Assembly: GCF_900111645.1 (NCBI RefSeq)
Contig: NZ_FOHQ01000003.1
Coordinates: 73,803-113,802, forward strand
Length of the DNA stretch: 40,000 bases
Source of the DNA: Methanococcoides vulcani
GTDB taxonomy: Archaea; Halobacteriota; Methanosarcinia; Methanosarcinales; Methanosarcinaceae
Direction: 5' to 3'
How positions within the stretch are numbered: position 1 is the stretch's first letter; every line of letters starts with the position of its first letter. The position numbers and the translations under genes were made by a program. A model generated the notes under the pieces. It was not told the DNA's origin. It worked only from the letters and a program-made list of their open reading frames with translations, and made no database searches. Below, piece by piece: positions 1-37,556 of the stretch.

Positions 1-3000
1 TATTGGATCCCCTCCAAGGTTGGATTCTATATATTTTCCATCCATTGCGTTGAGAACCTGCTGTACCTCATCCTCACTCTGACCAAGGTTGTAGGCATAT
101 TCCGTAGCATCTGATAGATAATCATCCATTGCAACTGAATTGTTACCAACACCAAGAACCTGTTCCTGAGCAAACGTGGAATTTAATCCCAGATTCAGAA
201 CAAGGTCGAGAAGCAACACTGGTGCAGTTTCGGATGTGTTGTACAGTGCGACTTCCTCCTTGAAATCATTTCCAAGCATGGAACATACCATCTCACTTAG
301 CTGTTCATCTTGCGGTGAAGTACCAAGGATATGCAAACCATATGGCATAGATGTGGTCCTTAGTTCCCTGAGAACATCATCAAGTTCATCCAGGAACTCT
401 TCCCTTGTCGACTCACCCTTGGAATGACTCATATTGACCCTTTCATCCAGATGCAATTCAAGTGTCAGGTTAACGATCTCGTTATAGCGTAACTCCTGCA
501 TATTCGGGTCACTGGAAAGAGCGTTATACTGACTTATCTTGTCGTTCAATTCGGTATAATTTCCATAACTTCCGGACATTACCACAGGTGGTATGAGGTG
601 ATCGATTATGATCGCATTACCTCTGCGTTTTGCCTGCATGCCTTCTCCCATACCATCCATTACGTATGGGTAGACGACAGGAATGTCACTGACCATGAGG
701 GCAGGCCACTCGTCCCTGAACAGACCGAATTCTTTTCCAGGCAACCATTCGACAGTACCATGTCTACCCATATTTACCATCACATCGGCATCAAACTCGT
801 TCTGCAACCATAGATAGAATGCGATGTACTGGTGGTGAGGTGGCAGGTCTCCTGAATGGTAGAGTGCATCATTGTCCTGTAACCAGCCTCTTGTAGGTTG
901 CGGGGCAAGGATCACATTGTCACTAACTTCTATTTTAGGTATAACGACGAAGCTGTTACCTGAACGATCTTCGTATATCATGACCTCTCCAGGAGCTTCA
1001 CCCCACATTTCAACTACTTCCTGCTTTCTTTCTTCAGGAAGCTCATCGAACCAACCATGATATGTTTCTTCAGGGATCAATGTCACTTTGCCTGTCTCGA
1101 CAAGGTCTTCCAGTTCTCCAGGTGCCCAGGTTCCAATATTTGTACCCTGCTTCACAAAGAGATCTACAAGTTCTGTTTCGTTAGGAATGCTTGAACTTTC
1201 TACATCATAACCTGAGTCGGCCATTCCTTTCAGAAGATTATTGATACTTGGGACGACTTCAAGGTATGAAGCACCTATGTTGTCTTTTCCTGCTCCATGG
1301 TTATAGTACAGGATAACTACTTTCTTGTCAGATTCGTTCTTTGAAGAAAGTTCTGTCTGTGCTTCAGCCCTGTCCACAAGCCAATCAATCTGACTATCAA
1401 CTGGAACGTAAATATCATTACCCTGGGAATCGACTTCTTCTGATGCGATCATAATCGGATCGATCCAGCCCCATGTCTCAGGTCTGTACATCCTCAGCAT
1501 ATAGGTGTTAGGCAGCGGGTTATTTGTAGCCTCCCACTCTTCCAGGTTCATGTAACCGTTGAGTACGGTGTTCATCACTGGTACACCCAGATCTTCTTTG
1601 TCGAAAGGTTGACTGCGATAAGTGCTTGAAAGTATCAGGTCGACTTTAGTTTCAGGAGTATGGTTGAAGAACGGGTCTACATAATTACTTCTTGAACCAT
1701 AGCATGGAATTACATTTATGCCTCTGGATTCGAAGTTTCTGATAAGCTCATCGAAAGGCATCAGGTCGTCTGGATAATAAGAACTGTAGAATAGTATACC
1801 TACAGTTGGTGCATTTTCATCAAAGGAATGATTGGTTCCCGTCCTGTTGCTATACCAGTCGAAATATTCTGTGGCACTGGATGTGAAATGGGACAATTCG
1901 GTCATGTCTGGATGATAAATGGCTTTTTCCAGACCGTCTGGACCTTTCACCTCAAGATCATCCCTGCCTCCATATTCCTTTGAAAGGAAGAAGATCATGT
2001 TATCAAAGTTTGAGGTATCCATAGCACCATATATCCAGTAATCCTGGAGGTAATCCCGCAGATCATCCTCGTCGGAAAAGACGGATGGTATGTATGGGAT
2101 ATTCTGGTTCAGGTGAGTATTATATCCTATTACTACCGTACCATTTGCTATTGCAGCATTAATCTCATCTTCGATCATAGATGCACTATCCGTGAACATG
2201 TTCACATATATGATGTCAGTATCACTGAGGTTTACGTCTTCTGTAAGTGTGGAAGGTAGATAATAGGATACAGTAATGTTGTAAGTCGAATTTTCATTAA
2301 TCCTGCTTACAAGTCCATCGAACTGTTGTTTATAGCTTTCATAACCAGTTATCAATGCAATATTGATGTGAGGACCATTTGCTGCAGCTCCTGACTCAGC
2401 ATATATCTTTTTAAGCAGAACAAGATCTGTACCAACTTTTGGAGATCCAGATTTACTTAGTGTAAGACCTGAAACTGTCGTTCTATCTAGGTATGCAAGT
2501 ATGGCATCGTGATAATTGCTCTGATTCTTGCGCATTGCAAACGTAATGTTCATAGGAGTGCCGTTTTCGACATTAAAATCACTTACATTTGTTAACCACA
2601 TACCACCCATTGCAGTACTGTATATAACACCCGATAAGCTGTAATCCCCGTTCGGCACGTTATCGAAAAGGTAGTAACCGGTTTCATTACTGGTTGTATT
2701 GTCAACGAACTCACCATTCTGGTCAGTTAGAACCAGATCTGTACCAACTTTTGGAGATCCAGATTTACTTAGTGTAAGACCTGAAACTGTCGTTCTATCT
2801 AGGTATGCAAGTATGGCATCGTGATCATTGCTTTCATTCTTGCGCATTGCAAACGTAATGTTCATAGCAGTGCCGTTTTCGACAGTGAATTCACTGACAT
2901 TTGTTAACCACATGCCACCCATTGCAGTACTGTATATAACACCTGATAAGCTGTAATCCCCGTTGGGGACGTTATCGAAAAGGTAGTAACCAGTATTATT

Positions 3001-4422
3001 ACTGGTTGTATTGTCAACAAACTCACCATTTTGGTCAGTTAATATGAGATCTGAACCAACTTTTGGAGAGCCTGATTTACTGAGTGTAAACCCTGAAACT
3101 GTCGTTCGGTCAATATATGAAAGTATTGCCTCGTGATCATTGCTCTCATTCTTGCGCATTGCAAACGTAATGTTCATAGGAGTGCCGTTTTCTACAGTAA
3201 ACTCACTAACATTAGTTAACCACATGCCACCCATTGCAGTGCTATATATAACACCTGATAACCTGTAATCACCATTTGGTACGTTATCGAAAAGGTAGTA
3301 ACCGGTTTCATTACTGGTTGCATTTCCAAATAACTTGAAAGTTGTAGTAAAAGTTGGAGTTTCTTCTGTTTCTTCTGGCTCTGTATTTTCATCTGTAAAT
3401 ACATTTTTAAGCAGAACGAGATTAGTACCAACTTTTGCAGACCCACTCTTGCTTACCGTCCTGCCTGAAACAGCAGTTCTATCCAGGTATGCAAGTATTG
3501 CCTCGTGATCATTGCTCTCATTCTTGCGCATTGCAAACGTAATGTTCACAGCAGTGCCGTTTTCTACAGTGAATTCACTGACATTTGTTAACCACATGCC
3601 ACCCATTGCAGTGCTATATATAACACCCGATAAGCTGTAATCCCCGTTGGGGACGTTATCGAAAAGGTAGTAACCGGTTTCATTGCTGGTTGTATTGTCA
3701 ACAAACTCACCATTTTGGTCAGTTAAAACAAGATTAGTACCAACTTTTGCAGACCCACTCTTGCTTACCGTCCTGCCTAAAACAGCAGTTCTATCCAGGT
3801 ATGCAAGTATTGCCTCGTGATCATTGCTTTCATTCTTGCGCATTGCAAACGTAATGTTCATAGGAGTGCCGTTTTCGACAGTGAACTCACTGACATTTGT
3901 TAACCACATGCCACCCATTGCAGTGCTATATATAACACCCGATAAGCTGTAATCCCCGTTGGGGACGTTATCGAAAAGGTAGTAACCGGTTTCATTGCTG
4001 GTTGTATTGTCAACGAACTCACCATTCTGGTCAGTTAAAACAAGATTAGTACCAACTTTTGCAGACCCACTCTTGCTTACCGTTCTGCCTGAAACAGCAG
4101 TTCTATCCAGGTATGCAAGTATAACATCGTGATCATTGCTCTCATTCTTGCGCATTGCAAACGTAATGTTCATAGCAGTGCCGTTTTCTACAGTAAAATC
4201 ACTGACATTCGTTAACCACATACCACCCATTGCAGTACTATATATTACTGAAGCCAGTCGGTAATTTCCATTCGGAACATCACTAAAACTAAAGTTCCCG
4301 TTCTCATCACTCGTCGTATTCGCAACGACTTCCATATTTTCATAATTTCCAGCCGATACCACTGGCATTGCAAGTGCCAGCAACAAAAGTATGCTTAAAG
4401 CTAATATGCCGCATTTTCTCAT
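1..4422 (-). CDS. Secreted CobN/Mg-chelatase-family large-subunit homologue with a signal peptide and six tandem carboxypeptidase-regulatory-like beta-sandwich repeats; 3' end runs off the window
   Basis: My own minus-strand translation from the ATG at 4422-4420 gives MRKCGILALSILLLLALAMPVVSAGNYEN..., followed by 6 units of about 104 aa (consensus ...NETGYYLFDNVPNGDYSLSGVIYSTAMGGMWLTNVSEFTVENGT.MNITFAMRKNES...). In the same frame (870 and 4422 are both 0 mod 3), 870 downward reads DALYHSGDLPPHHQYIAFYLWLQNEFDADVMVNMGRHGTVEWLPGKEF..., the hallmark CobN/ChlH motif. It is absent from the ORF track because there is no stop codon inside the window. Confidence 0.85.
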   Translation of the reverse strand, partial: MRKCGILALSILLLLALAMPVVSAGNYENMEVVANTTSDENGNFSFSDVPNGNYRLASVIYSTAMGGMWLTNVSDFTVENGTAMNITFAMRKNESNDHDVILAYLDRTAVSGRTVSKSGSAKVGTNLVLTDQNGEFVDNTTSNETGYYLFDNVPNGDYSLSGVIYSTAMGGMWLTNVSEFTVENGTPMNITFAMRKNESNDHEAILAYLDRTAVLGRTVSKSGSAKVGTNLVLTDQNGEFVDNTTSNETGYYLFDNVPNGDYSLSGVIYSTAMGGMWLTNVSEFTVENGTAVNITFAMRKNESNDHEAILAYLDRTAVSGRTVSKSGSAKVGTNLVLLKNVFTDENTEPEETEETPTFTTTFKLFGNATSNETGYYLFDNVPNGDYRLSGVIYSTAMGGMWLTNVSEFTVENGTPMNITFAMRKNESNDHEAILSYIDRTTVSGFTLSKSGSPKVGSDLILTDQNGEFVDNTTSNNTGYYLFDNVPNGDYSLSGVIYSTAMGGMWLTNVSEFTVENGTAMNITFAMRKNESNDHDAILAYLDRTTVSGLTLSKSGSPKVGTDLVLTDQNGEFVDNTTSNETGYYLFDNVPNGDYSLSGVIYSTAMGGMWLTNVSDFNVENGTPMNITFAMRKNQSNYHDAILAYLDRTTVSGLTLSKSGSPKVGTDLVLLKKIYAESGAAANGPHINIALITGYESYKQQFDGLVSRINENSTYNITVSYYLPSTLTEDVNLSDTDIIYVNMFTDSASMIEDEINAAIANGTVVIGYNTHLNQNIPYIPSVFSDEDDLRDYLQDYWIYGAMDTSNFDNMIFFLSKEYGGRDDLEVKGPDGLEKAIYHPDMTELSHFTSSATEYFDWYSNRTGTNHSFDENAPTVGILFYSSYYPDDLMPFDELIRNFESRGINVIPCYGSRSNYVDPFFNHTPETKVDLILSSTYRSQPFDKEDLGVPVMNTVLNGYMNLEEWEATNNPLPNTYMLRMYRPETWGWIDPIMIASEEVDSQGNDIYVPVDSQIDWLVDRAEAQTELSSKNESDKKVVILYYNHGAGKDNIGASYLEVVPSINNLLKGMADSGYDVESSSIPNETELVDLFVKQGTNIGTWAPGELEDLVETGKVTLIPEETYHGWFDELPEERKQEVVEMWGEAPGEVMIYEDRSGNSFVVIPKIEVSDNVILAPQPTRGWLQDNDALYHSGDLPPHHQYIAFYLWLQNEFDADVMVNMGRHGTVEWLPGKEFGLFRDEWPALMVSDIPVVYPYVMDGMGEGMQAKRRGNAIIIDHLIPPVVMSGSYGNYTELNDKISQYNALSSDPNMQELRYNEIVNLTLELHLDERVNMSHSKGESTREEFLDELDDVLRELRTTSMPYGLHILGTSPQDEQLSEMVCSMLGNDFKEEVALYNTSETAPVLLLDLVLNLGLNSTFAQEQVLGVGNNSVAMDDYLSDATEYAYNLGQSEDEVQQVLNAMDGKYIESNLGGDPI
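2413..4340. repeat. Six tandem coding repeats, period 312 bp (one unit is 372 bp due to a 60-bp acidic-linker insertion)
   Basis: The landmark GTTAACCACAT(A/G)CCACCCATTGCAGT recurs at 2591, 2903, 3215, 3587, 3899 and 4211, with spacings of 312, 312, 372, 312 and 312. Neighbouring units (for example 3421-3732 versus 3733-4044) differ at only a few positions by eye. The unit at the gene's 5' end is more diverged. Confidence 0.9.
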
Positions 4423-10741: not shown

Positions 10742-12652
10742 ATGGCAATAGAAGATGTACTATCTGACCTAAAAAAGAAAATAGAAGAAAAGGTCCCTGA
10801 TGGAACGACCATCACCAGTGTTGAGTTCGAGGGGCCACAGCTTGTTGTTTATACTGAAAATCCTAAAAATTTTGCAGACAATGGTCATATCGTGAGGAAC
10901 CTTGCAAAAACTCTTCGAACAAGGATAGTCGTTCGTCCGGACCCTAAGGTCTTAGTTCCTCCAGAGGATGCTATCGAAAAGATAAAAGATACCGTTCCAA
11001 AAGATTCCATTCTAACTAATTTTCACTTTGATCCTGATGTGGGAGAAGTGGTCATAGAAGCGGAGAAGCCCGGACTTGTGATAGGTAAGCATGGAGAGAC
11101 GCTCCGTGAGATCACAAAGAAGATCGGCTGGACACCAAAGGTTGTCCGCACGCCGCCTATCAAATCCCGAACTGTTAACAACATCAGGGAATTTATGCGA
11201 ACCAATCACAAGGACCGTAAAGAGATCCTTAAGACCGTTGGGCGCAATATTCACAGGGAATGCACATCAAAGGATAAGTGGGTAAGGGTCACATCATTGG
11301 GAGGTTGTAAAGAGGTAGGAAGAAGTTGCTTCCTTTTATCAACCCCTGAGTCAAAGGTCATGATTGATTGTGGTGTGAACGTCGGTTCAGACGATAACAT
11401 GACCCCTTATCTCTATTTGCCTGAGGTACAGCCACTTAACCAGATCGATGCTGTCGTACTGACACATGCTCACCTTGATCATCAGGGACTTGTTCCTCTC
11501 CTTTACAAATATGGCTATGAAGGTCCTATTTACTGCACATCACCTACAAGGGACATGATGGTGCTCTTACAGCTGGATTATATCGATGTGGCTGCAAAGG
11601 ATGGTAAAAGGATACCTTATGAATCTTCAAATGTGCGTGACGGACTTAAGCACACCATTGCACTTGGTTTTGAAGAGGTTACCGACATTGCACCTGATAT
11701 CAAGCTCACATTCCATAATGCCGGCCATATCATTGGTTCAGCAATATCACATTTCCATATTGGTGATGGTCTTCACAATGTTGTTATCACCGGTGACTAC
11801 AAGTACGGTCCTACAAGGCTCTTTGACCCGGCTGTCAACAAGTTCCCGCGTGTTGAGACCGTCATAACCGAATCTACCTATGGTGCATCCTCGGCAATAC
11901 AGCCATCCCTTAAAGAAGCTGAGAAGAACCTTCAGCAGATCGTCAAAAGGACCATTGCCAACAATGGTATTGTACTGATCCCTGCGTTTGCTGTTGGAAG
12001 AAGTCAGGAAGTCATGATAGTTCTTGAAGATGCTATCAGGAAAGGTATAATTGACGACATTCCTGTCTATCTTGATGGTATGATATGGGAAGCTACAGCC
12101 ATTCATGCGACCTATCCGGAATACCTGAACAATAACCTCAGGAAACTCATCTTCCAGAAGGGGCAGAACCCGTTCCTTGCAGAATGCTTCAAGCCGGTAG
12201 ATTCCCATGATCTGCGAAAGAAGATCATTAATGATCCACACCCATGTGTGATCCTCGCAACCTCTGGTATGATGAATGCAGGCCCCGTTATGGAATATTT
12301 CAAGGCATTTGCACCTGATCCTAACAACACACTTGTGTTCGTCGGTTATCAGGCAGATGGTACACTTGGAAGACGTATCCAGAAAGGCTGGAAGGAGATC
12401 CCGCTCTCATCCAAGAACGGAGCAGAGGTCGTCCAGATGAATATGGATGTGCAGGTAGTCGATGGTTTCTCAGGACACTCCGACAGAAAACAGCTGATGG
12501 ATTTCATTAAGAAGATGAAGCCACAGCCAGAGCGTGTTTTCACTGAGCACGGTGATGAACGTTCCTGTATCGATCTTGCAAGTTCATTGCACAAGAAATA
12601 TCGCCTCGAAACGAGAGCACTTACAAACCTTGAGACTGTAAGGCTTGTTTGA
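10742..12652 (+). CDS. aCPSF1-type beta-CASP ribonuclease (KH domains + metallo-beta-lactamase + beta-CASP; FttA-like)
   Basis: 636 aa. KH-like motif [18 protein letters not shown] motif [10 protein letters not shown], and a C-terminal HSDRKQL / EHGDE motif typical of CPSF73/aCPSF1. Confidence 0.93.
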
Positions 12653-20763: not shown

Positions 20764-22316
20764 ACAGAACTGACAGGGAGGTCGGAACTTCAGAAATTAC
20801 CGGGCTGGAAGCTCTTTATTTTGCATTGATTGACAGCAAGGTGGAGATGGTCACGGGAGTTGCCGGATTTCCTGTTACTGCCGTAATGGAATATTTCGAG
20901 AAGAATCTCGGTTCTGACATTCCCACACTGTGGATGACGAATGAGAAGGTCGCCCTCGAAGCAGCACTTGGTGCTTCGGTTTCAGGCAAGAGGTCCTTGG
21001 TCCTCACAAAGCATGTGGGTATGAACGTCCTTTCCGACCCCCTTGTTACAGCTGTTACTCACACCATTGGTGCCGGGGTAGTGATTGTTGCCGGAGATGA
21101 TCCGGGGGTCAGAGCATCCCAGAACGAGCAGGATTCACGATGGTACGGTGAGGTGGCAGAGGTTGCTGTATTCGACCCCTCCGGCCCGGATGCTGCATAC
21201 GGGTCACTTGTCAGGGCATTCGAACTTTCTGAAAGAACAAAAACGCCGGTCATAGTCAGGATAACGGATCGTCTGGAAAAAGCCACAGGTCCTGTCACAA
21301 GATCCGATGACATTAAAGCAGAGACCGAAGCTACATTTGACAGGTCTATCTGGAAGCTGACAATGCGTGGTAAGCATCAGCATTTTCACATAAATGTACA
21401 GCCATTGCTTGTGGATGAAGCAGAGAGCAGTTCACTGAACCGATCTGTTAGATCAGGCAGATCAAGCAAAACAGATAAAGTAGGAATAATTTCTTCCGGC
21501 TATCCTTCTTTACTTGTAGATGAGCTATTATCCGAAAGGCAGCTTGAGGTTTCACATCTTTCACTTAATGTTGTATCTCCTCTTCCTGTCAGGAAATTGA
21601 GAGATTTCATATCCGATCACGAAAAAGTTCTTGTTATTGAGGAAAGTGAAGCCTTTATCGAATCCCACATCAGTATCTGTGAGAATGTGCTGGGAAAGAT
21701 GAGCGGGCATCTCCCATATGGTCGCATTGAAAAAGAACAGATCGGTTTTGCGATCGAGAACATCGATAAAGATAAGGTAACTGAATATACTTTTATTGAG
21801 ACCATTGAGGAAAGGGGTTCACGTTCTTTGTGCGAGGACTGTCTTTTCCTGCCGGTCTATAGAATGCTTCATGATCTGGATATTTTCATAGCAGGTGATA
21901 TGGGCTGCTCCATACGCAGTGCCCCTGCGCCCCTTGAAGCCGTTGATGTCGGATTTGCACTTGGTGCTGCTATTTCCACAGCTATAGGTTTCGATAAGAA
22001 GTCCGTTGCTGTTATAGGCGACTTCGGACTTTCACATTCCGGAATTATAGGTCTGATAAATGCTGTCGAGAACGAACGTGATGTACTGGTACTGGTACTG
22101 GACAACAGGACAGCAGCAATGACAGGTGGACAATCCACGCCTGATCTTACAGATGCTGTAAAAGCACTTTGTGATGATGTCACTGTCTTTGAGTTCAATG
22201 ATCCAGAAATTGCTGGTAGCAGGATAAAGGAACTTGAAAGTCTTGTAAGGAATAAGCTCGCAGTAAAGGGTGTTTCGGTAATCTATGTAAGGGCTGAATG
22301 TGTTTTGTATAAGTGA
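20760..22316 (+). CDS. Indolepyruvate:ferredoxin oxidoreductase alpha-subunit-like TPP enzyme, lacking the ferredoxin domain
   Basis: NEKVALEAALGASVSGKRSLVLTKHVGMNVLSDPL...VAGDDPGVRASQNEQDSRWY and GDMGC...IGDFGLSHSGIIGLINAV...LDNRTAAMTGGQ match IorA motifs. I see no CxxCxxCxxxCP motif in the 518 aa. The ATG overlaps the upstream stop codon (ATGA). Confidence 0.75.
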   Translation: MNRTDREVGTSEITGLEALYFALIDSKVEMVTGVAGFPVTAVMEYFEKNLGSDIPTLWMTNEKVALEAALGASVSGKRSLVLTKHVGMNVLSDPLVTAVTHTIGAGVVIVAGDDPGVRASQNEQDSRWYGEVAEVAVFDPSGPDAAYGSLVRAFELSERTKTPVIVRITDRLEKATGPVTRSDDIKAETEATFDRSIWKLTMRGKHQHFHINVQPLLVDEAESSSLNRSVRSGRSSKTDKVGIISSGYPSLLVDELLSERQLEVSHLSLNVVSPLPVRKLRDFISDHEKVLVIEESEAFIESHISICENVLGKMSGHLPYGRIEKEQIGFAIENIDKDKVTEYTFIETIEERGSRSLCEDCLFLPVYRMLHDLDIFIAGDMGCSIRSAPAPLEAVDVGFALGAAISTAIGFDKKSVAVIGDFGLSHSGIIGLINAVENERDVLVLVLDNRTAAMTGGQSTPDLTDAVKALCDDVTVFEFNDPEIAGSRIKELESLVRNKLAVKGVSVIYVRAECVLYK

Positions 22317-22340: not shown

Positions 22341-22432
22341 CGGCTTTTTGTGGGTTCGAATCTTACCCCCCGCACAATACTTCGGGGATATAGGGAAAGT
22401 ACGAAAAGGCAACTCCTAAAACTTTCTAACTA
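22341..22432 (+). repeat. Copy A (shorter, partly deleted) of a hairpin-bearing intergenic repeat
   Basis: The perfect 27-bp core CCCCGCACAATACTTCGGGGATATAGG at 22368-22394 is identical to 25602-25628. The flanks are similar: GGCTTTTTGTGG / AATCT..TACC on the left and (G/T)AA(A)GTA(C)GAAAA..AACTCC.AAACTTT on the right. The copy starts 25 nt after the IorA-like stop codon. Confidence 0.8.
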
Positions 22433-22688
22433 TACCCTTCTAGTAAGGCCGTCTACTTACGGCTTATTTTAAGTAAGTCTTGAGAAGGAAAATTGTCTTT
22501 TTTTAATTTATTAAAACGCAATCAGTAAGCACATTTTATGCAAAATATTTATATGCTAAAAATGCATATTACATATGTACATTTCTATCAAATTATTCAG
22601 CTAATTATCTGTAAGATTCAAAAAAAATAGTATTGAAATCGATGCATTAGTTTAGCTGATTATTTGGACTAATGGAAGGTAATCTACA

Positions 22689-23885
22689 ATGAAAATGCTA
22701 CTTCTAAACGGCCATGGAATCAACATGCGGGTTGATGCTGCTAAACTCCATATCAGGGATGGAAGATTTTCAACCACTGAAGATCCTCAAGAGTATGTGT
22801 TCTCTCCCAAGAGGATGGATGTTGATAGTATCATTGTTTATGGTAGAAGTGGATCTCTGAGCCTTGAGGCTATCAGATGGTTGGTCAAACACAATGTACA
22901 GATTACAATTCTCAATTGGGATGGAAAACTGTTGACAACAATGCTTCCTTCTGAAAGTACCAATGTTAAGACAAAGTTTGCCCAGTACCACGCTTATGAA
23001 GATCAGGATACAAGAGTAAAGCTTGCAAGGAAGTTCATTGAAGCCAAGTTCTCTAAATCTGAAGCTGTTCTTGATTATCTGCAGCAAAGGTATCCTGAGA
23101 TTGAGTACGATTTTACTGATGACAAAGCCAGACTTGAGAAAGCCAAATCCATAAGGGAAATACTTGGTGTTGAAGGTGGAGTTGCCTGGAAATACTGGAA
23201 TGAGTATGCCAAAGCTGTTCCTGAACAGTATGATTTCAAGGCAAGAACTGATAATTACAGAAGGGCAAACGGAGCAGGCGACAAAGTCAATGTGATGCTT
23301 AACTATGGGTATGCATTGCTTGAATCTGAGTGCCTGAGAGTCATTAATTCAGTTGGTCTTGATGCTCATGTTGGTTTCCTTCATGAGATGAATCAGAGCA
23401 AGTACAGTCTGGCTTATGATTTCCAAGAGCTGTTCAGGTTTATTGTTGATCTCGCTGTAATGAACCTGATTGAAAAGGGAGCTATGGATAACAAGGATTT
23501 TGTCAGGACTGAGAGCTTTTCTTTGAGGTTAAGACCAACTGGAGCAAGGAAGGTTACTGAAGAGTTTAATTCTGTGATGAATAGCAAAGTCGAGTATAGG
23601 AAAAAGAATAGTTCTTGGGGATCTGTCCTGTTGCTCAAAGCAAGGGAACTAAGCCATCATCTTGTTGGAAAGAGAAAAGCTGTTGAGTTCATGAATCCTT
23701 CTTATAAGATTGAAAGACATGATTCTGATTTATTGAGGAAGAAGATCATTGATATGCCTTATACTGAATGGAAGAAGATGGGTTTCTCTAAGGGTACATT
23801 GCATTACATGAAACAGAATGCTAGAAGTGATAAGCCGTTTACACTCAATGCTCATGTTAGGGAAAGGTTGGAAGGATGGGAATAA
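22689..23885 (+). CDS. cas1: Stand-alone Cas1 integrase (casposase-like, with a C-terminal HTH extension)
   Basis: The Cas1 fold signature runs throughout: N-terminal LLLNGHGINMRVDAAKLHI, then GVEGGVAWKYWNEY (catalytic Glu), NVMLNYGYALLESE and GLDAHVGFLHEMNQSKYSLAYDFQELFR (catalytic His and Asp). The C-terminal MPYTEWKKMGFSKGTLHYMKQN looks like an HTH, as in casposases. No cas2, cas4, array or polB lies nearby. Confidence 0.9.
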   Translation: MKMLLLNGHGINMRVDAAKLHIRDGRFSTTEDPQEYVFSPKRMDVDSIIVYGRSGSLSLEAIRWLVKHNVQITILNWDGKLLTTMLPSESTNVKTKFAQYHAYEDQDTRVKLARKFIEAKFSKSEAVLDYLQQRYPEIEYDFTDDKARLEKAKSIREILGVEGGVAWKYWNEYAKAVPEQYDFKARTDNYRRANGAGDKVNVMLNYGYALLESECLRVINSVGLDAHVGFLHEMNQSKYSLAYDFQELFRFIVDLAVMNLIEKGAMDNKDFVRTESFSLRLRPTGARKVTEEFNSVMNSKVEYRKKNSSWGSVLLLKARELSHHLVGKRKAVEFMNPSYKIERHDSDLLRKKIIDMPYTEWKKMGFSKGTLHYMKQNARSDKPFTLNAHVRERLEGWE

Positions 23886-23989
23886 AAAGGATGAGTAGCA
23901 AAATTATTTATAAGTAAAGGATTGTATCAAAAATGAATTAATTAAAAGCAAAAATTTCTAACTTGTCACAAAAAGAGCAAGGTGTAATC

Positions 23990-25537
23990 GTGAAAACAGT
24001 AATGTTCATATTCCTTCTTGTCCTCTTTTTACCTTTATCTAGTGCACAAGGTCTCGATTTTGACTCAGAAAGATCTCCTCTATTAAGGGATAACAATTCC
24101 CCAATAATTCAAGATGTTTATGGATCTTATGTTTTGACTAATAACACAAGTTTTAGTGGTAAAATAAAGGATTTCAAAGATTCCAATGTCGCTTTTAATT
24201 TTACATTTAACTTTACTTCAGGTAGTCAATCGATAAAAATACAAGACAAGATCATTAATCCAGAATCTTCTTTTTTTTTCAGGTTGGATTACGTTGTTTC
24301 ACCTGAAGTTCATATGATTGAAGCTTTTAGTTTTAACTTAGGCCTATGGCCAGAAAGACTAACAAGTCCAACTCTGTCAACTCTATCAACAGGCCCTCTT
24401 GCTGTTTATAATGAGGATAAGGTTTTAATTTTTCCTACACTACCCAATTCAAGTAACTACTTAGTATGGAAAAATAATGGGTCAACAATTATCTCAATAA
24501 TTACTACTCCTAAAAAAGAGCAAGATTCTTTACATCTTGATATTATGTACTTAGATAAGGAGACAGAAACCTATCGCAATGAAGTTACTAATTTAGGTTT
24601 TTTAGATGAAAAAATTGATGTTTTGTTATATGAACCAACTTCTGCTATACGTGACATTTCACTACACTACGAAAATGGCACTTCCCAAGAAATAGACTTT
24701 TCTGATCCAGAAGATGTTGTTAAGTGGAGTTTTGAGAATGTAATTGTCAAAAATGGAAGTGCACAATGGGGATCTCCTTATTTCACCTACAATCAGTTTA
24801 GTAGTACAAATGAAACATTTGAAAGTATTAGTTTCGATGAAGCTTTGAAGTTGAATTCTTCAGAATGGTTGTATGATGGAAAACAATTTTTTAGAATATT
24901 TGAAGGGAATATAGAAGAAGTCACTGTTGATTATTCAATAGATGGAATTTTTCACTATATACTTGTAACTCAAAGCCAAATTGTACCAAAAATTGTTATC
25001 GAATGTAAAGACAAAGAGATTAACCAATTATCTTTAAAATATAACCAATCTGGAACCACAAAAATTGAAACGATAAACGCTAATGATGATAAAATTATTT
25101 TTAATGAACCACTATTGCTTGAAGGTTCTTCTTTTTATTTTCCATTTGACAGCTATCAATCTAAAATTTATGCCATAAATCCACCATCACTTAAAGAAAA
25201 AAAAAGTGAGTTGCCTTTCGTAGATGGTTCCCGCTTTGAAGGCGATGCACATTTTAAGAGAGATAAAATTGAATTTGAAATGACAAGCCGTAAAGATATT
25301 AAATGCCAATATTGGTTAAGCTTATTATTTTTTTCCATATCATTTACTTTGTTACTATTTTGGGAAAATAACACTAACGACAATAGAAAAAAAATACTCG
25401 AAATTATTTCTATTATTTTTGTTTTTATTGGTAATCAAACATTTTTGGTTAGTATCGGCACGATTCTTTTTTTGATCATAGCCGTCTTTATAGTTTTTTT
25501 GAAGCGTAAACCATTTTTCAAAAACTGTTGTGCATAA
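23990..25537 (+). CDS. Orphan secreted, probably N-glycosylated protein with a C-terminal double-TM anchor (unknown function)
   Basis: Signal peptide (M)KTVMFIFLLVLFLPLSSAQG. I prefer the GTG start at 23990, preceded by AAGGTG; the track uses the TTG at 23963. There are many NxS/T sequons. The C-terminal hydrophobic helices are YWLSLLFFSISFTLLLF and ILEIISIIFVFIG...ILFLIIAVFIVFL. The gene is very AT-rich compared with its neighbours. Confidence 0.7.
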   Translation: MKTVMFIFLLVLFLPLSSAQGLDFDSERSPLLRDNNSPIIQDVYGSYVLTNNTSFSGKIKDFKDSNVAFNFTFNFTSGSQSIKIQDKIINPESSFFFRLDYVVSPEVHMIEAFSFNLGLWPERLTSPTLSTLSTGPLAVYNEDKVLIFPTLPNSSNYLVWKNNGSTIISIITTPKKEQDSLHLDIMYLDKETETYRNEVTNLGFLDEKIDVLLYEPTSAIRDISLHYENGTSQEIDFSDPEDVVKWSFENVIVKNGSAQWGSPYFTYNQFSSTNETFESISFDEALKLNSSEWLYDGKQFFRIFEGNIEEVTVDYSIDGIFHYILVTQSQIVPKIVIECKDKEINQLSLKYNQSGTTKIETINANDDKIIFNEPLLLEGSSFYFPFDSYQSKIYAINPPSLKEKKSELPFVDGSRFEGDAHFKRDKIEFEMTSRKDIKCQYWLSLLFFSISFTLLLFWENNTNDNRKKILEIISIIFVFIGNQTFLVSIGTILFLIIAVFIVFLKRKPFFKNCCA

Positions 25538-25547
25538 TATAAAAAAT

Positions 25548-25665
25548 GGGTTTTGTGGACTCTTTACACAAGCCCGTACAAAAAATCTGGGTTACCTATA
25601 TCCCCGCACAATACTTCGGGGATATAGGTAAGTAGAAAAAACCGAACTCCCAAACTTTTTGTATG
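25548..25665 (+). repeat. Copy B (full-length) of the hairpin-bearing repeat
   Basis: A 15-bp perfect stem, TTACCTATATCCCCG (25592-25606) paired with CGGGGATATAGGTAA (25617-25631), encloses the loop CACAATACTT. An upstream mini-hairpin is TTGTG-GACTCTTTA-CACAA. The copy starts 11 nt after the stop of the preceding ORF. Confidence 0.8.
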
Positions 25666-25824: not shown

Positions 25825-27063
25825 ATGAGAATTAAAAAGAATATGATGATTTGTTTTGGAATGGTTTTAGTATTAATGACCATTGGAACAGCAACAGCAG
25901 GCACGATCACAGTGAACAACAGCACAGGACCAGTAGCAGATTATACCTCGATTCAGGATGCTGTAGATGTCGCAACTAATGGGGATACAATCCTTGTTTA
26001 CCCAGGAACGTATGTCGAAAACGTGGATGTAAACAAAGAATTGACCATTATCGCAGAATCCGGACCTGATGTTACCACTGTCCAGTGTGTTCCGGGGATG
26101 GACGATTACGTCTTCCATGCTGGAAATTTAACCGAAAATGTTAATGTGACCATCAACGGCTTTAATGTAACAGGTGGTAGAGGGATAGGTTTTTCAGAAT
26201 CCTTACACAGCGAGCTGAGAAATAACATTATATCGGACGGGGGAATTTTTGCTGGTGGTAGCGACATTACCGTGATCAATAACACCGTAATTTCGAAAGG
26301 AATAATATTATACGATAGTGAAGGTATTTTAGAGAATAATGAAGTGTTTTCTTGCTCTGGTACTGGAATAACTATTGAAGGTCAGGCAGACGGCACCTTG
26401 GTTAACAACACTATATATGAGAATGGTGTAGGAATTAGGATATGGGACTTTGGCAGCGGCGATATTTACAACAACACCATATATAGGAATGAAGTTGGAA
26501 TCAAGATATATGGGAATTCCTACGGAAAGATAGCTAACAACTATTTCAACAACACGATGAATGCTCAGATTGATGTACCTTATCTCGGCATATACATCAC
26601 CTGGAACACCACCAAAACAGCAGGTGCAAATATCATTGGTGGTCCTTTCCTTGGCGGAAACTACTGGGCACATCCGAATGGCACAGGTTTCAGCCAGATT
26701 GGTGAAGATTTAGATGGGGATGGGATCTGCGATTCACCATATATAATTGATGGGAACAACACCGACTACCTGCCATTGTATTTACCAACACCTGTTGATA
26801 AAATGGAAGCTCTCAAAGAATATGTGAATGGTCTGGATGGAGAGGTTGCAGATTCTACCAAACATGTTCTCAATGTAAAACTCGACGGTGTAATCAAAAA
26901 TCTTGACAAAGGAAATAACGATAATGCCATCAAAAAACTTGAGAATTTCATTAAATTTGTTGATATAAAGGAAAGGCAAGGTAAGTTAGGAACTGAGCAA
27001 GCTGAATACCTAATCAATGAAGCAAATTCTATCATTGAGATGATACAGAATTCAGAAGGGTAA
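25825..27063 (+). CDS. Secreted right-handed parallel beta-helix (PbH1/NosD-like) repeat protein with a C-terminal helical domain
   Basis: Signal peptide MMICFGMVLVLMTIGTATA. Contains GTITVNNSTG...SIQDAVDVATNGDTILVYPGTYVENV and repeated NN.I..N..GI units. GDGICDSPYIIDGNNTDYLPL is typical of archaeal NosD-like surface proteins. Confidence 0.8.
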   Translation: MRIKKNMMICFGMVLVLMTIGTATAGTITVNNSTGPVADYTSIQDAVDVATNGDTILVYPGTYVENVDVNKELTIIAESGPDVTTVQCVPGMDDYVFHAGNLTENVNVTINGFNVTGGRGIGFSESLHSELRNNIISDGGIFAGGSDITVINNTVISKGIILYDSEGILENNEVFSCSGTGITIEGQADGTLVNNTIYENGVGIRIWDFGSGDIYNNTIYRNEVGIKIYGNSYGKIANNYFNNTMNAQIDVPYLGIYITWNTTKTAGANIIGGPFLGGNYWAHPNGTGFSQIGEDLDGDGICDSPYIIDGNNTDYLPLYLPTPVDKMEALKEYVNGLDGEVADSTKHVLNVKLDGVIKNLDKGNNDNAIKKLENFIKFVDIKERQGKLGTEQAEYLINEANSIIEMIQNSEG

Positions 27064-27109: not shown

Positions 27110-27213
27110 TCAACAGCATTCTCCCCAGTTCTCCAACCTCTCCTTTACATGAGCATTGAGAGTAAACGACTTATCGCTCTGGCTTTAAGTTTCATAACCC
27201 TCAATTTGATACT
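27110..27213 (-). pseudogene. 3'-terminal remnant of a second cas1 (casposase-like) gene, in inverted orientation
   Basis: The reverse complement reads ...NSKYQIEGYET*SQSDKSFTLNAHVKERLENWGECC*, against FSKGTLHYMKQNARSDKPFTLNAHVRERLEGWE* in the intact Cas1. About 40 of 46 nt are identical over GATAAG.CGTTTAC.CTCAATGCTCATGT.A.GGA.AGGTTGGA. There is an internal stop and roughly the N-terminal 370 codons are missing. Confidence 0.75.
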
Positions 27214-27325: not shown

Positions 27326-28222
27326 TTAGCTAATTGGCGGAAAGTCAGAGAGTTGTTCTAAATCTGTAAGGACGATTTGGGGTTTATACTTATATTTTTT
27401 GACTTTCCCGCTAACATAAACATAACCTCGCCCATGCTTGGCATAACGCTTTTCAATAAGTTGGAGCAGGGGGGCTGCTTCTTCACCATCTACGTTTGGT
27501 ATCCACAAATTGAATTTGTGATGCTTTGAACCTGCGTAGATCAGTGCTCCACCACCAGTCCATTTATTTATTCCAGATTGAAGATCGCAAAATACCGTGG
27601 CGAATTCTTCATTTTCAGCTGTTTTTTTGATGGTTTCATAGTCAAGTCTTACAGAAAGAACGCCTGCATCAACACCAATTTCACGATAATCTTCGATGAC
27701 GGATGCTCGAAGCGACCACCAAGGTAACAAGGTAGTGTAGTCACGAGACAGTCCACCGCAATTGGTTTCCGGATTCCATATTTGAAGATTGTTAGCCTGT
27801 GCTTCCGCTTCCGCAATCATAAATTCCTCATGATACAATCTTGACCTGCCATACTTAACAAAGTATGGGCTCCATCCTTCTTTAACAAGTTTTAGATTAT
27901 AATTTTCATCGCCTTTATGGACGTAGCACAACAGGCGGTTATAGTTTCCGCGATGCTTGGCTAAGCAGACATGCTCAGGGTCATCGGTGTCAAATTCGAT
28001 GCTAACCTGAACAAATCCTCCTCCTGGTGAAGTGAAATACTCTTTTGCCATTTCAGTTGCTGCCTTCCCTGCTTTTGTAACAGGTTTTGAACCCCCTGAA
28101 TAGCTTTCCTCGGTATCAACATCGATAAGTCTCAGAGTTTCTTCTTCCCCTTTAATCAGTACCTTAATAGTGTCCCCATCTACTACTTTTGTCACTTGAA
28201 GGTTTTCAATTCGTGTTCCCAT
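27326..28222 (-). CDS. Staphylococcal-nuclease (thermonuclease/SNase) fold protein with an uncharacterised C-terminal domain of about 150 aa
   Basis: VVDGDTIKV...LRLIDVDTEES...HRGNYNRLLCYVH...NLKLVKEGWSPYF...AEAEAQANNLQIW follows the order of the SNase motifs (DGDT, RL.G.D.PE, YGR.L.YV, LV..G.A, A...A...G.W). I prefer the start at MGTRIEN (28222), preceded by GGGGGAG; the track ORF starts at 28240. Confidence 0.75.
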   Translation of the reverse strand: MGTRIENLQVTKVVDGDTIKVLIKGEEETLRLIDVDTEESYSGGSKPVTKAGKAATEMAKEYFTSPGGGFVQVSIEFDTDDPEHVCLAKHRGNYNRLLCYVHKGDENYNLKLVKEGWSPYFVKYGRSRLYHEEFMIAEAEAQANNLQIWNPETNCGGLSRDYTTLLPWWSLRASVIEDYREIGVDAGVLSVRLDYETIKKTAENEEFATVFCDLQSGINKWTGGGALIYAGSKHHKFNLWIPNVDGEEAAPLLQLIEKRYAKHGRGYVYVSGKVKKYKYKPQIVLTDLEQLSDFPPIS

Positions 28223-28772
28223 TTTGTCTCCCCCATTCACTCATTTTAGACAATGTCTTGCGGATAAAAGAAGTTCGCTAATGGATAAATTTGAATGAAG
28301 CATGGCGAAGCCTTTTATCCGCTGTTAAGCGACAATTTTGGCGGCAAAAATAGTTTAACCCCCCACTATTGTCCGCATCATATCTAATTTCAATGATCGG
28401 GATCATGTCTTCCCTATCACACTAGACATATACATATAAAAATTTATAGTATATATCAGTAGTTTATTATAATTTTATGCGATAGATATAGCATTATAAA
28501 CATAGCATAATTTTATACCATTCATATAATTATTTTTTTAATAGATAAAAATAGAAATTTATTAAATAGATTAAATTTGGAGTGTGGTGATTAGCAAGAC
28601 AACATCTTTCCAATTGTTAAAAAGAATGGAGAATTCCGATAAACCTCCCCAACAGAAGCAAAATTTATAAGCAAATGTTATAATTTTATATTAGATCCTT
28701 AAAGAGCTTTGCTTTTAAAGAAGACATTCATTTGATTGTGGAATGGGTTAGAAGGAAGCGAACAATATTGAT

Positions 28773-28934
28773 ATGCAGGAGCTTGAAGGAAATGCGGTTG
28801 AAACCTATCTTGATATCAAGAAGGTTCATGAATGAGTGCTTGTTCTGACTCCTGATGATGTTAGGGAGATGGGAATCGAACACAGGAGTACGTTGAAGAG
28901 GATCAAAGATAAAATAAAAAATGATGTTCGATAA
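28773..28934 (+). pseudogene. Decayed short ORF with an in-frame TGA, encoding an HTH-like segment
   Basis: MQELEGNAVETYLDIKKVHE-TGA(28833)-VLVLTPDDVREMGIEHRSTLKRIKDKIKNDVR-stop. The pattern ..(D/E)(V/W)(R/K)(E/K)MG(I/F)....TL(K/H)(R/Y)(I/M)K resembles the C-terminal HTH of the Cas1 at 22689. The assignment is weak. Confidence 0.3.
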
Positions 28935-36712: not shown

Positions 36713-36904
36713 CTGGTAAATGTTGGTTTCTGTCATGGATGGATCAGAACTAATATGGTCTTGTTTATGATACTCAAGACTGCTTAAAACAAAATTTGAT
36801 CTAAAAATTAATCCAAAAATAGATCGTGCGATCATGATAGAAATATTCTATCTAATCGCACATTTCACTTTGATCTTTATGAAAATATTATTATTCACAT
36901 CCAC

Positions 36905-37063: not shown

Positions 37064-37556
37064 TTGTTTTCCTCCCTTTATATTTTATACCAATTCGATC
37101 CAAAAAGCCGCACTTGGGAATCTATTATTCTTGGGAGGTCTTGATGAACTAGTTGACTAATGCCACTCATGGTCTGACCAGATATATCACTGTTGGTTTT
37201 CAGATATCTGAAAACAATGGTAAGGCAGTAAAACGTTGAGCTGCTTTTCGAATGATCCTCAAAAGGGTGTTTATGAACTATTTATTGATCATGGATCTGA
37301 GAAGATCAAGGATGATCCCGGCATTTCAAATCGTTAAGCAGGCTCAGGCATTTACTGATGTGGTAATTATCACTTAGTTTGTGTGATTTTGCTTAATTTG
37401 TTTTATGTGACTGAATACAAACCTTATTAAAGATAGAGGACATTATACTCAATGAGTTTTTTTAAAGGTTTATGATAATTGGTAATGATTTATTTTCATT
37501 TTGTGAATGGATGACAAATGTTCATTCATTTTGTTATATTTGTTATGGGAGCTATA

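Follow-up and report, generated by a model that had tools for sequence, protein, structure and literature searches.

We analyzed a 40-kb stretch of Methanococcoides vulcani DNA (hereafter the window) in which two copies of a repeat, one of them able to fold into a hairpin, bracket a cas1 gene and one further open reading frame (ORF) just past a gene for an IorA-like protein. The region is very probably an integration hotspot for family-2 casposons, and the repeats are the ends of casposons that stand in tandem and share a single target-site duplication (TSD). The left-hand element, element 1, is 3,220 bp long (22385-25604, plus strand) and has a perfect 14-bp TSD on either side and contains a casposase gene and one cargo ORF between two terminal inverted repeats (TIRs); the right-hand one, element 2, is decayed. 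We observe this in the anatomy of the junctions, in the homology of the ends, target and enzyme to those of Methanosarcina mazei, and in the recurrence of the same layout in related genomes. An initial annotation of this DNA had rightly chosen casposon biology as the frame and had taken the repeats for the boundaries of a mobile unit containing cas1, a proposal supported by the closest relative, NM1, whose junction lies exactly at the repeat. The pattern is the canonical casposon pattern in tandem and not a new type of boundary.

Anatomy of the junctions

The core of the repeat is a perfect 27-bp block, CCCCGCACAATACTTCGGGGATATAGG, with exactly two exact occurrences in the window, both on one strand and in direct orientation: 22368-22394 (copy A, the left repeat) and 25602-25628 (copy B, the right repeat). 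The chance expectation for matches to a core of this length in the window is zero, and the perfect direct repeat that the initial annotation had described is thereby borne out. So are the positions of the two copies just behind stop codons, with the IorA-like ORF stopping at 22316 and a 524-amino-acid ORF at 25537. The annotation had also claimed imperfect similarity on both sides of the core, and here the two sides differ. Rightward, an alignment of copies A and B with small gaps runs for ~31 nt at about 80% identity, a score equaled by 0.35% of shuffles. Leftward, the similarity is marginal (best local match, 8 nt; score reached by ~4% of shuffles), and we treat the left-flank homology of the two copies as mostly chance (p about 0.04).

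Mapping all GGGATATAG-like sites together with their neighbors revealed the layout of the junctions. The 27-bp core consists of CCC, a 14-bp TSD and the first 10 nt of a TIR, with the CCC closing the host flank in copy A and a TIR in copy B. Copy A thus reads as a host flank resembling the 3' end of a tRNA-Leu (...GTGGGTTCGAATCTTACCCCC, up to 22370), the first TSD copy (CGCACAATACTTCG, 22371-22384, plus strand) and the left TIR of element 1 (GGGATATAGGGAAAGTACGAAAAGGCAACTCC..., 22385-22428, plus strand), beyond which lie cas1 and the 524-amino-acid ORF. Copy B reads as the right TIR of element 1 (...GTACAAAAAATCTGGGTTACCTATATCCC, ending at 25604; 25548-25604, GGGATATAGGTAACCCAGATTTTTTGTACGGGCTTGTGTAAAG... 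on the minus strand), the second TSD copy (25605-25618, plus strand) and a TIR of element 2 (GGGATATAGGTAAGTAGAAAAAACCGAACTCCC..., 25619-25662, plus strand). The two TSD copies are identical over 14/14 positions and begin with CGCA, and the second, common to elements 1 and 2, has outward-facing TIR termini on both sides. The right-hand likeness of copies A and B is that of two related TIR variants. In the whole 40 kb, the sequence GGGATATAGG has exactly three exact occurrences, all at these junctions, and casposon genes or fragments are present on both sides of the shared TSD.

The same arrangement accounts for the hairpin at copy B (25592-25631). Its arms, at 25592-25606 and 25617-25631, form a perfect 15-bp stem around a 10-nt loop; folded as DNA, the structure reaches -15.2 kcal/mol (z = -5.4), in agreement with the stem and loop reported initially. 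Thirteen nucleotides of each facing TIR tip make up most of the stem, the self-complementary CG...CG ends of the TSD add 2 bp, and the middle of the TSD forms the loop. Copy A folds no better than shuffled sequences (z = -0.3). The suggestion that it is a decayed hairpin that has lost TATAT and a block of ~25 bp is wrong, as its left side is an unrelated, conserved host flank. Both the direct repeat and the hairpin exist because two casposons share one TSD.

A strong hairpin directly past an ORF stop codon could instead be an IS200/IS605-like subterminal structure, a repetitive extragenic palindromic (REP) sequence or a MITE (miniature inverted-repeat transposable element), or a transcription terminator that lies beside cas1 by coincidence. 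We give this reading very little credence, as there is no TnpA or TnpB gene, copy B alone folds, and all related hairpins that we found are at casposon junctions. No Rfam family is matched in the window at gathering thresholds. The window holds two copies, and a scan of 185,579 species genomes with the 20-nt hairpin core returned one chance exact match, in an unrelated metagenome-assembled genome of Dependentiae; the absence of scattered copies speaks against a generic REP/MITE, as the initial annotation had held, although that collection excluded the source genome and says little on copy number within M. vulcani.

The palindromic repeat next to a Cas1 gene also invites comparison with CRISPR, given the hypothesis in the literature that leads from casposons to CRISPR. 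An immune function as a proto-CRISPR array, in which casposon ends would have given rise to the repeats and the insert would act as a spacer, is nevertheless extremely improbable here: the two copies lie 3,234 bp apart with the transposon itself between them, no tandem array is present where a CRISPR array would have at least three regularly spaced repeats and spacers of 25-70 bp, the window contains no cas2 or effector gene, and the repeated unit is a TSD plus a TIR and not a processed repeat. What survives of the resemblance to CRISPR repeats noted earlier is the general analogy between casposons and CRISPR, which is already in the literature.

Likeness to the M. mazei casposase system

The family-2 casposons of M. 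mazei have 14-bp TSDs with an invariant 5' CGCA and insert at the 3' ends of tRNA-Leu genes or at intergenic sites with similar TSDs (Krupovic 2016, PMC4779613). For the M. mazei enzyme, Hickman 2020 (PMC6977970) used the casposon end LE31, GGGATATAGGTAACTCAAAAAAACGCAACGC, crystallized ends with 5'-TATATCCC, and worked with the target CGTGCGTTCGAATCGCACCTCT|CGCACTTTTTTTAA, in which integration requires the CGCA, the 4 bp preceding it and part of the upstream tRNA sequence. The three casposon ends in the window match LE31 closely over its first 14 nt: 14 positions are identical in the right TIR of element 1, 13 in the TIR of element 2 (25/31 overall) and 12 in the left TIR of element 1. The initial annotation had judged the pattern to be unlike that of canonical casposons; this is contradicted by two features known from M. 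mazei, a TSD of 14 bp that opens with CGCA and TIRs that end in ...TATATCCC-3'.

The target side fits equally. The host flank at 22349-22370 (plus strand) has the form GTGGG-TTCGAAT-CTTAC-CCCCC, corresponding to a T-arm plus acceptor, and runs directly into CGCA. It agrees at 16/22 positions with the 22 nt upstream of the TSD in targ40, the minimal M. mazei target, which is the joint-best score in the window. The second site with this score, at 28886 on the minus strand, we regard as chance, since it falls inside a PolB-like fragment and has no adjacent CGCA or TIR. An actual tRNA gene at copy A was considered and rejected: ARAGORN finds none in the window, and the flank is merely tRNA-like. 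We presume that 22349-22370 is the leader-like recognition sequence of the casposase target and not an intact tRNA.

The casposase gene of element 1 (22689-23885, plus strand) is intact and encodes a family-2 Cas1 homologue of 398 amino acids with a C-terminal helix-turn-helix region (Pfam Cas_Cas1, 8.5e-66). It aligns with the M. mazei casposase 6OPM without gaps over its full length (398 residues, E=5.6e-190) and contains the Cas1 motif stretches GVEG, HVGFLHE and AYDFQE.

Direct repeats around a small set of genes, together with a tRNA-like flank, are typical of integrative elements, and the repeats might accordingly be attL/attR or attC-like boundaries produced by a tyrosine or serine recombinase or an integron integrase. 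This is very improbable. The ORFs of the 18-30 kb region contain no integrase or recombinase domain, the identical block is a 14-bp TSD plus casposon termini that match the experimentally defined casposase substrate, and the hairpin arms are casposon TIRs, which in relatives form inverted pairs at a distance of 8-10 kb. The att sites, attC-like boundaries and single-strand-transposon hairpins considered in the initial annotation are thus the wrong analogues for a direct repeat and a hairpin that arise from two elements with one common TSD.

By homology with the M. mazei system, the tandem casposon ends would have formed as follows. The casposase, a Cas1-like integrase, would recognize a 14-bp site that starts with CGCA and is preceded by a sequence like the 3' end of tRNA-Leu, and would join the element through its 3'-OH ends (...TATATCCC-3') to both target strands, 14 bp apart, after which gap repair would duplicate the 14 bp. 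The upstream flank and the upstream TSD copy would outlast integration, so that the site could be used again and a tandem could form. In the order of events that we infer, element 2 was already resident and element 1 inserted into its left TSD, which would give the layout of flank, TSD, element 1 (3,220 bp), TSD and element 2 (inverted and largely deleted).

Among known systems, the M. mazei family-2 elements MetMaz-C1 and MetMaz1FA1A3-C2 have the same terminus as element 1 (GGGATATAGGTAA... / ...TATATCCC-3'), a casposase that aligns with its own without gaps, 14-bp TSDs starting with CGCA and a tRNA-Leu T-arm/acceptor-like sequence before the target. Element 1 differs from them in lacking PolB, HNH and other core genes, in its size (3.2 kb versus about 8-10 kb) and in TIRs that agree over only about 13 nt. 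Its flank is an intergenic tRNA-like fragment rather than an intact tRNA-Leu gene and resembles the M. mazei intergenic site IR1. Tandem casposons are likewise known already: pairs with one shared TSD occur in Methanosarcina sp. 2.H.T.1A.3 and 2.H.A.1B.4 (Krupovic 2016, PMC4779613), and the arrangement has been reproduced experimentally, when a PolB-less mini-casposon of ~3 kb used the left TSD of MetMaz-C1 as its target in vivo and formed a tandem (Gehlert 2023, PMC10359463). The window shares with these tandems the inactivation of one of the two elements and the position of a ~3-kb, PolB-less element in the left TSD of a resident; unlike them, its second element is inverted and reduced to fragments. 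Element 1 also differs from the mini-casposon of 2023 in being natural and in having its own intact casposase, which the experimental element did not have. The casposon papers themselves draw an analogy with Tn7 at attTn7. Tandem Tn7-like islands are similar in site specificity, in their position downstream of a conserved gene, in reuse of the site and in the presence of partly dead elements, and different in their unrelated transposase, 5-bp TSD and different target-recognition protein.

The site in related genomes

We compared the window with loci from M. methylutens (L003, L004, L007), M. burtonii (L005), elsewhere in M. vulcani (L010) and metagenomic contigs (L014, L015, L018); the M. vulcani assembly in these comparisons is GCA_900773955.1, in which the window lies on contig CAAGSJ010000005.1. 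Cas1 proteins from M. methylutens, M. burtonii and other Methanosarcinales share 85-92% identity with that of element 1, and the related cas1 genes sit in PolB casposons of 8-10 kb with the same TIRs and perfect 14-bp TSDs. An inverted-repeat search found TIR pairs 8.4 kb apart in M. burtonii (GGGGATATAGGTAAGTCTGTTTTTTTGTACG / CGTACAAAAAAATCAAGTTACCTATATCCCC) and 9.5 kb apart in M. methylutens (GGGGATATAGTTAAC...GTGTACGGGCTTGTGTAA), and these TIR sequences are the ones that flank the loop of copy B. The full-length elements of L003, L005, L014 and L018 have perfect 14-bp TSDs. Back-to-back TIR-TSD-TIR palindromes also occur in at least seven Methanosarcinales loci (L003, L004, L005, L010, L014, L015 and L018), with conserved arms and differing loop sequences.

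Flanks resembling tRNA-Leu likewise recur at casposon junctions (L003, L005, L006, L007, L010, L012, L014 and L018). Run on L003-L008, ARAGORN reports no tRNA except for an unrelated tRNA-Val in L005. At two loci (L007 9549-9683 and L018 3140-3275), the module of tRNA-Leu-like flank plus CGCA is present as a tandem duplicate with a short or decayed solo TIR in between and no intact tRNA nearby.

At the site itself, NM1, M. methylutens and M. burtonii (L006, L007 and L008) all keep the host flank directly after the stop codon of the IorA-like gene, and all three continue with a 14-mer of the CGCA type and a casposon terminus. The presence of flank, 14-mer and terminus in all of these relatives marks the position behind the IorA-like gene as a long-standing hotspot of integration. 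The closest relative is NM1, with a flank 93% identical. At its junction, the flank seen at copy A leads into the identical 14-mer, and the TIR behind it keeps to the right side of copy B over 24 nt. Element 1 is not there, and the 3' end of a minus-strand cas1 gene lies ~1.7 kb further on, as in element 2 of the window. With element 1 missing from NM1 and flank and TSD the same, the point at which the two genomes differ is exactly the TSD; the comparison of island boundaries that the initial annotation had called for thus places the junction at the repeat.

In M. methylutens (L004/L007; CP199767.1, approx. 603-636 kb), the orthologous site past the IorA-like gene holds an island of >20 kb with two full cas1 genes, at least two cas1 fragments, and one PolB, together with protease and methyltransferase genes. 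Throughout the genus, casposons appear to have accumulated again and again at this locus. The M. burtonii elements MetBur-C1 to C3 (Krupovic 2014, PMC4046053) are comparable to those of the window in coming from the same genus and in being multiple, adjacent and partly decayed, with Cas1 identities of 85-87%. Although the casposon papers of 2014 (PMC4046053) and 2016 (PMC4779613) reported no identifiable TIRs or TSDs for the MetBur elements, we find that one M. burtonii element (L005 3817-3846 / 12220-12249; M. burtonii DSM 6242, CP000300.1, approx. 565958-574390) has a 31-nt TIR pair, 87% complementary, and a perfect 14-bp TSD, CGACTTGTTATGAG.

A second PolB-less, TIR-bounded element of ~5.8 kb is present in the same M. 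vulcani genome as the window (L010 9483-15320, contig CAAGSJ010000003.1). Its cargo comprises HNH, a truncated cas1 (336 amino acids) and a 1193-amino-acid NosD-repeat protein. It has an imperfect TSD (10/14), its own back-to-back TIR palindrome and a tRNA-like flank at its far end.

Content and origin of the two elements

The two ends of element 1, at 22385 (plus strand) and 25604 (minus strand), both read GGGATATAGG.AA and are identical at 12/13 nt. The cargo ORF between casposase and right TIR (23963-25537, plus strand; 524 amino acids, ~31% GC) encodes what looks, from its hydrophobic, signal-peptide-like N terminus, many N-x-S/T sequons and hydrophobic C terminus, like a secreted or membrane-anchored protein. 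It has no match in Pfam, NCBIfam or PADLOC and no DNA similarity to the other casposon loci compared. There is no PolB similarity within 22385-25604, and the only PolB remnants in the window lie outside it, at 28752-28922 and 37185-37342. Element 1 is therefore best called a PolB-less derivative and not a complete casposon. A 3,220-bp element with an intact casposase and one cargo gene but without PolB is the mildly unusual feature of the locus.

Rightward of 25619, the order in element 2 is a NosD-like gene, the 3' stub of a cas1 gene, a gene for a staphylococcal nuclease-like (SNase-like) protein, a fragment related to insertion sequences (IS) and a PolB stub. To judge from this gene order, element 2 is an inverted, heavily deleted casposon. 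The NosD-like cargo gene (25825-27063, plus strand; Pfam match to NosD/beta-helix and FIMAH domains) shares 36% identity over its full length with a 477-amino-acid ORF that adjoins a TIR of the same variant in L010; its FIMAH end has a homologue in a gene fragment directly downstream of cas1 in L007. The stub of the second casposase gene (27125-27195, minus strand; 60-70 nt, amino acids 378-397) was recognized by tblastn at 75% identity (E=1.7e-5) and by blastn as an inverted match to 23808-23872 (83% identity), and the end of the minus-strand cas1 in NM1 is co-linear with it. At 28752-28922 (plus strand) lies a fragment of the C terminus of a casposon PolB (amino acids about 816-871; 48% identity to the M. 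burtonii casposon PolB by tblastn, E=9e-10 for the whole window, E=5e-11 for the sub-region), probably the far remnant of element 2.

Two further features lie within this debris. The SNase-like nuclease gene (27326-28240, minus strand) gives a weak PADLOC candidate-defense match (SNc+LTD, 1e-14) and has no counterpart in the other casposon loci examined. A 99-nt segment at 28626-28724 is 83% identical to sequence next to each of the two copies of a DDE transposase (IS) of M. burtonii (L005 2261-2359 / 3636-3734) and is probably an IS end or a MITE-like fragment.

How element 1 came to have its present form is less certain than the identity of its ends. The ends could be casposon ends while element 1 itself never moved as a 3.2-kb unit, the direct repeat being a by-product of rearrangement, either because a full-length casposon lost its PolB module by internal deletion or because neighboring copies underwent homologous recombination into a chimera whose ends are two TIR variants. 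We regard this as a quite possible, if not the favored, account. The two ends of element 1 are different TIR variants: the left one recurs ~300 nt upstream of cas1 in L007 (9684) and L004 (9609), and the right one has GTACGGGCTTGTGTAA in common with the TIR of the M. methylutens casposon in L003, with ~91 nt alignable at 76%. The left module, consisting of TIR, ~300 nt and cas1, occurs twice in M. methylutens at ~85% identity and is co-linear there. Fragments of cas1 and PolB are abundant both here and at the M. methylutens counterpart, and PolB adjoins cas1 in most of the close Cas1 relatives, drawn from metagenomes and two further genomes. On the other side, the TSD is perfect (14/14), NM1 places the polymorphism exactly at the TSD, and PolB-less mini-casposons transpose in vivo in M. 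mazei. A recombinational chimera alone would not yield a perfect pair of TSDs; an internal deletion is compatible with one.

Other observations weigh against the interpretation of the region as two tandem casposons produced by successive integrations. Element 1 lacks the PolB expected of a complete self-synthesizing casposon. Its ends agree in the terminal 13 nt only (12/13), and further in they belong to different TIR variants. The series of flank, TIR, 300 nt and cas1 is co-linear with M. methylutens (~85%), yet the TSD differs at 7/14 positions, so the left part of element 1 may be old, or gained by recombination, rather than a recent insertion. No truly empty site was seen, as a casposon end is present here in 4/4 Methanococcoides genomes examined. 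Finally, a search for a third copy with up to 3 mismatches gave no distal TIR or TSD for element 2.

Present mobility of element 1 would be a further step. That it is a natural minimal casposon, still mobile with a casposase, one cargo gene and 13-nt functional termini and without PolB, is unlikely; such an element would have to move without a dedicated polymerase or with one supplied in trans. No casposon PolB attributed to M. vulcani appears among the best 120 PolB homologues, a weak negative, and no second copy of element 1 was found among the Cas1 relatives in metagenomes and the two further genomes.

Outside 22.3-28.9 kb, the window is ordinary chromosome, with genes including geranylgeranyl reductase, NMD3, a proteasome subunit, FttA, MoaE/MobB, RadC, TiaS and a pst/phoU operon. 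Beyond that operon and 8 kb past the island, a low-GC stretch devoid of ORFs contains a cas1-like DNA fragment (36720-36779, plus strand; 77% identity to 23368-23428) and a PolB fragment (37185-37342, plus strand; amino acids about 729-771, 77% DNA identity to the M. burtonii casposon PolB), which suggests a further casposon remnant or a rearrangement that split the island. At the opposite end of the window, two arrays of a 312-bp tandem repeat (2417-4245) contain about 2.7-2.9 copies each at 90-95% identity; the first 5.2 kb has no listed ORF of at least 100 amino acids, and a long repeat-containing ORF running off the start of the window is possible.

The tandem casposon ends described here extend the M. 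mazei rules, namely the GGGATATAGG terminus, a TSD of 14 bp that opens with CGCA and the tRNA-Leu-like leader, to Methanococcoides, where casposons have a long-standing integration hotspot downstream of the IorA-like gene. They add a natural example, of textbook quality but modest value, of repeated casposon integration at one target site. With its intact casposase and perfect TSDs, element 1 could serve as a natural substrate for testing the need for PolB in mobility. If it is indeed mobile, PolB would be dispensable for casposon propagation in nature, and Cas1 together with the unit of repeat, 14 bp and repeat would stand as a present-day counterpart to the intermediate postulated between casposons and the CRISPR adaptation module.

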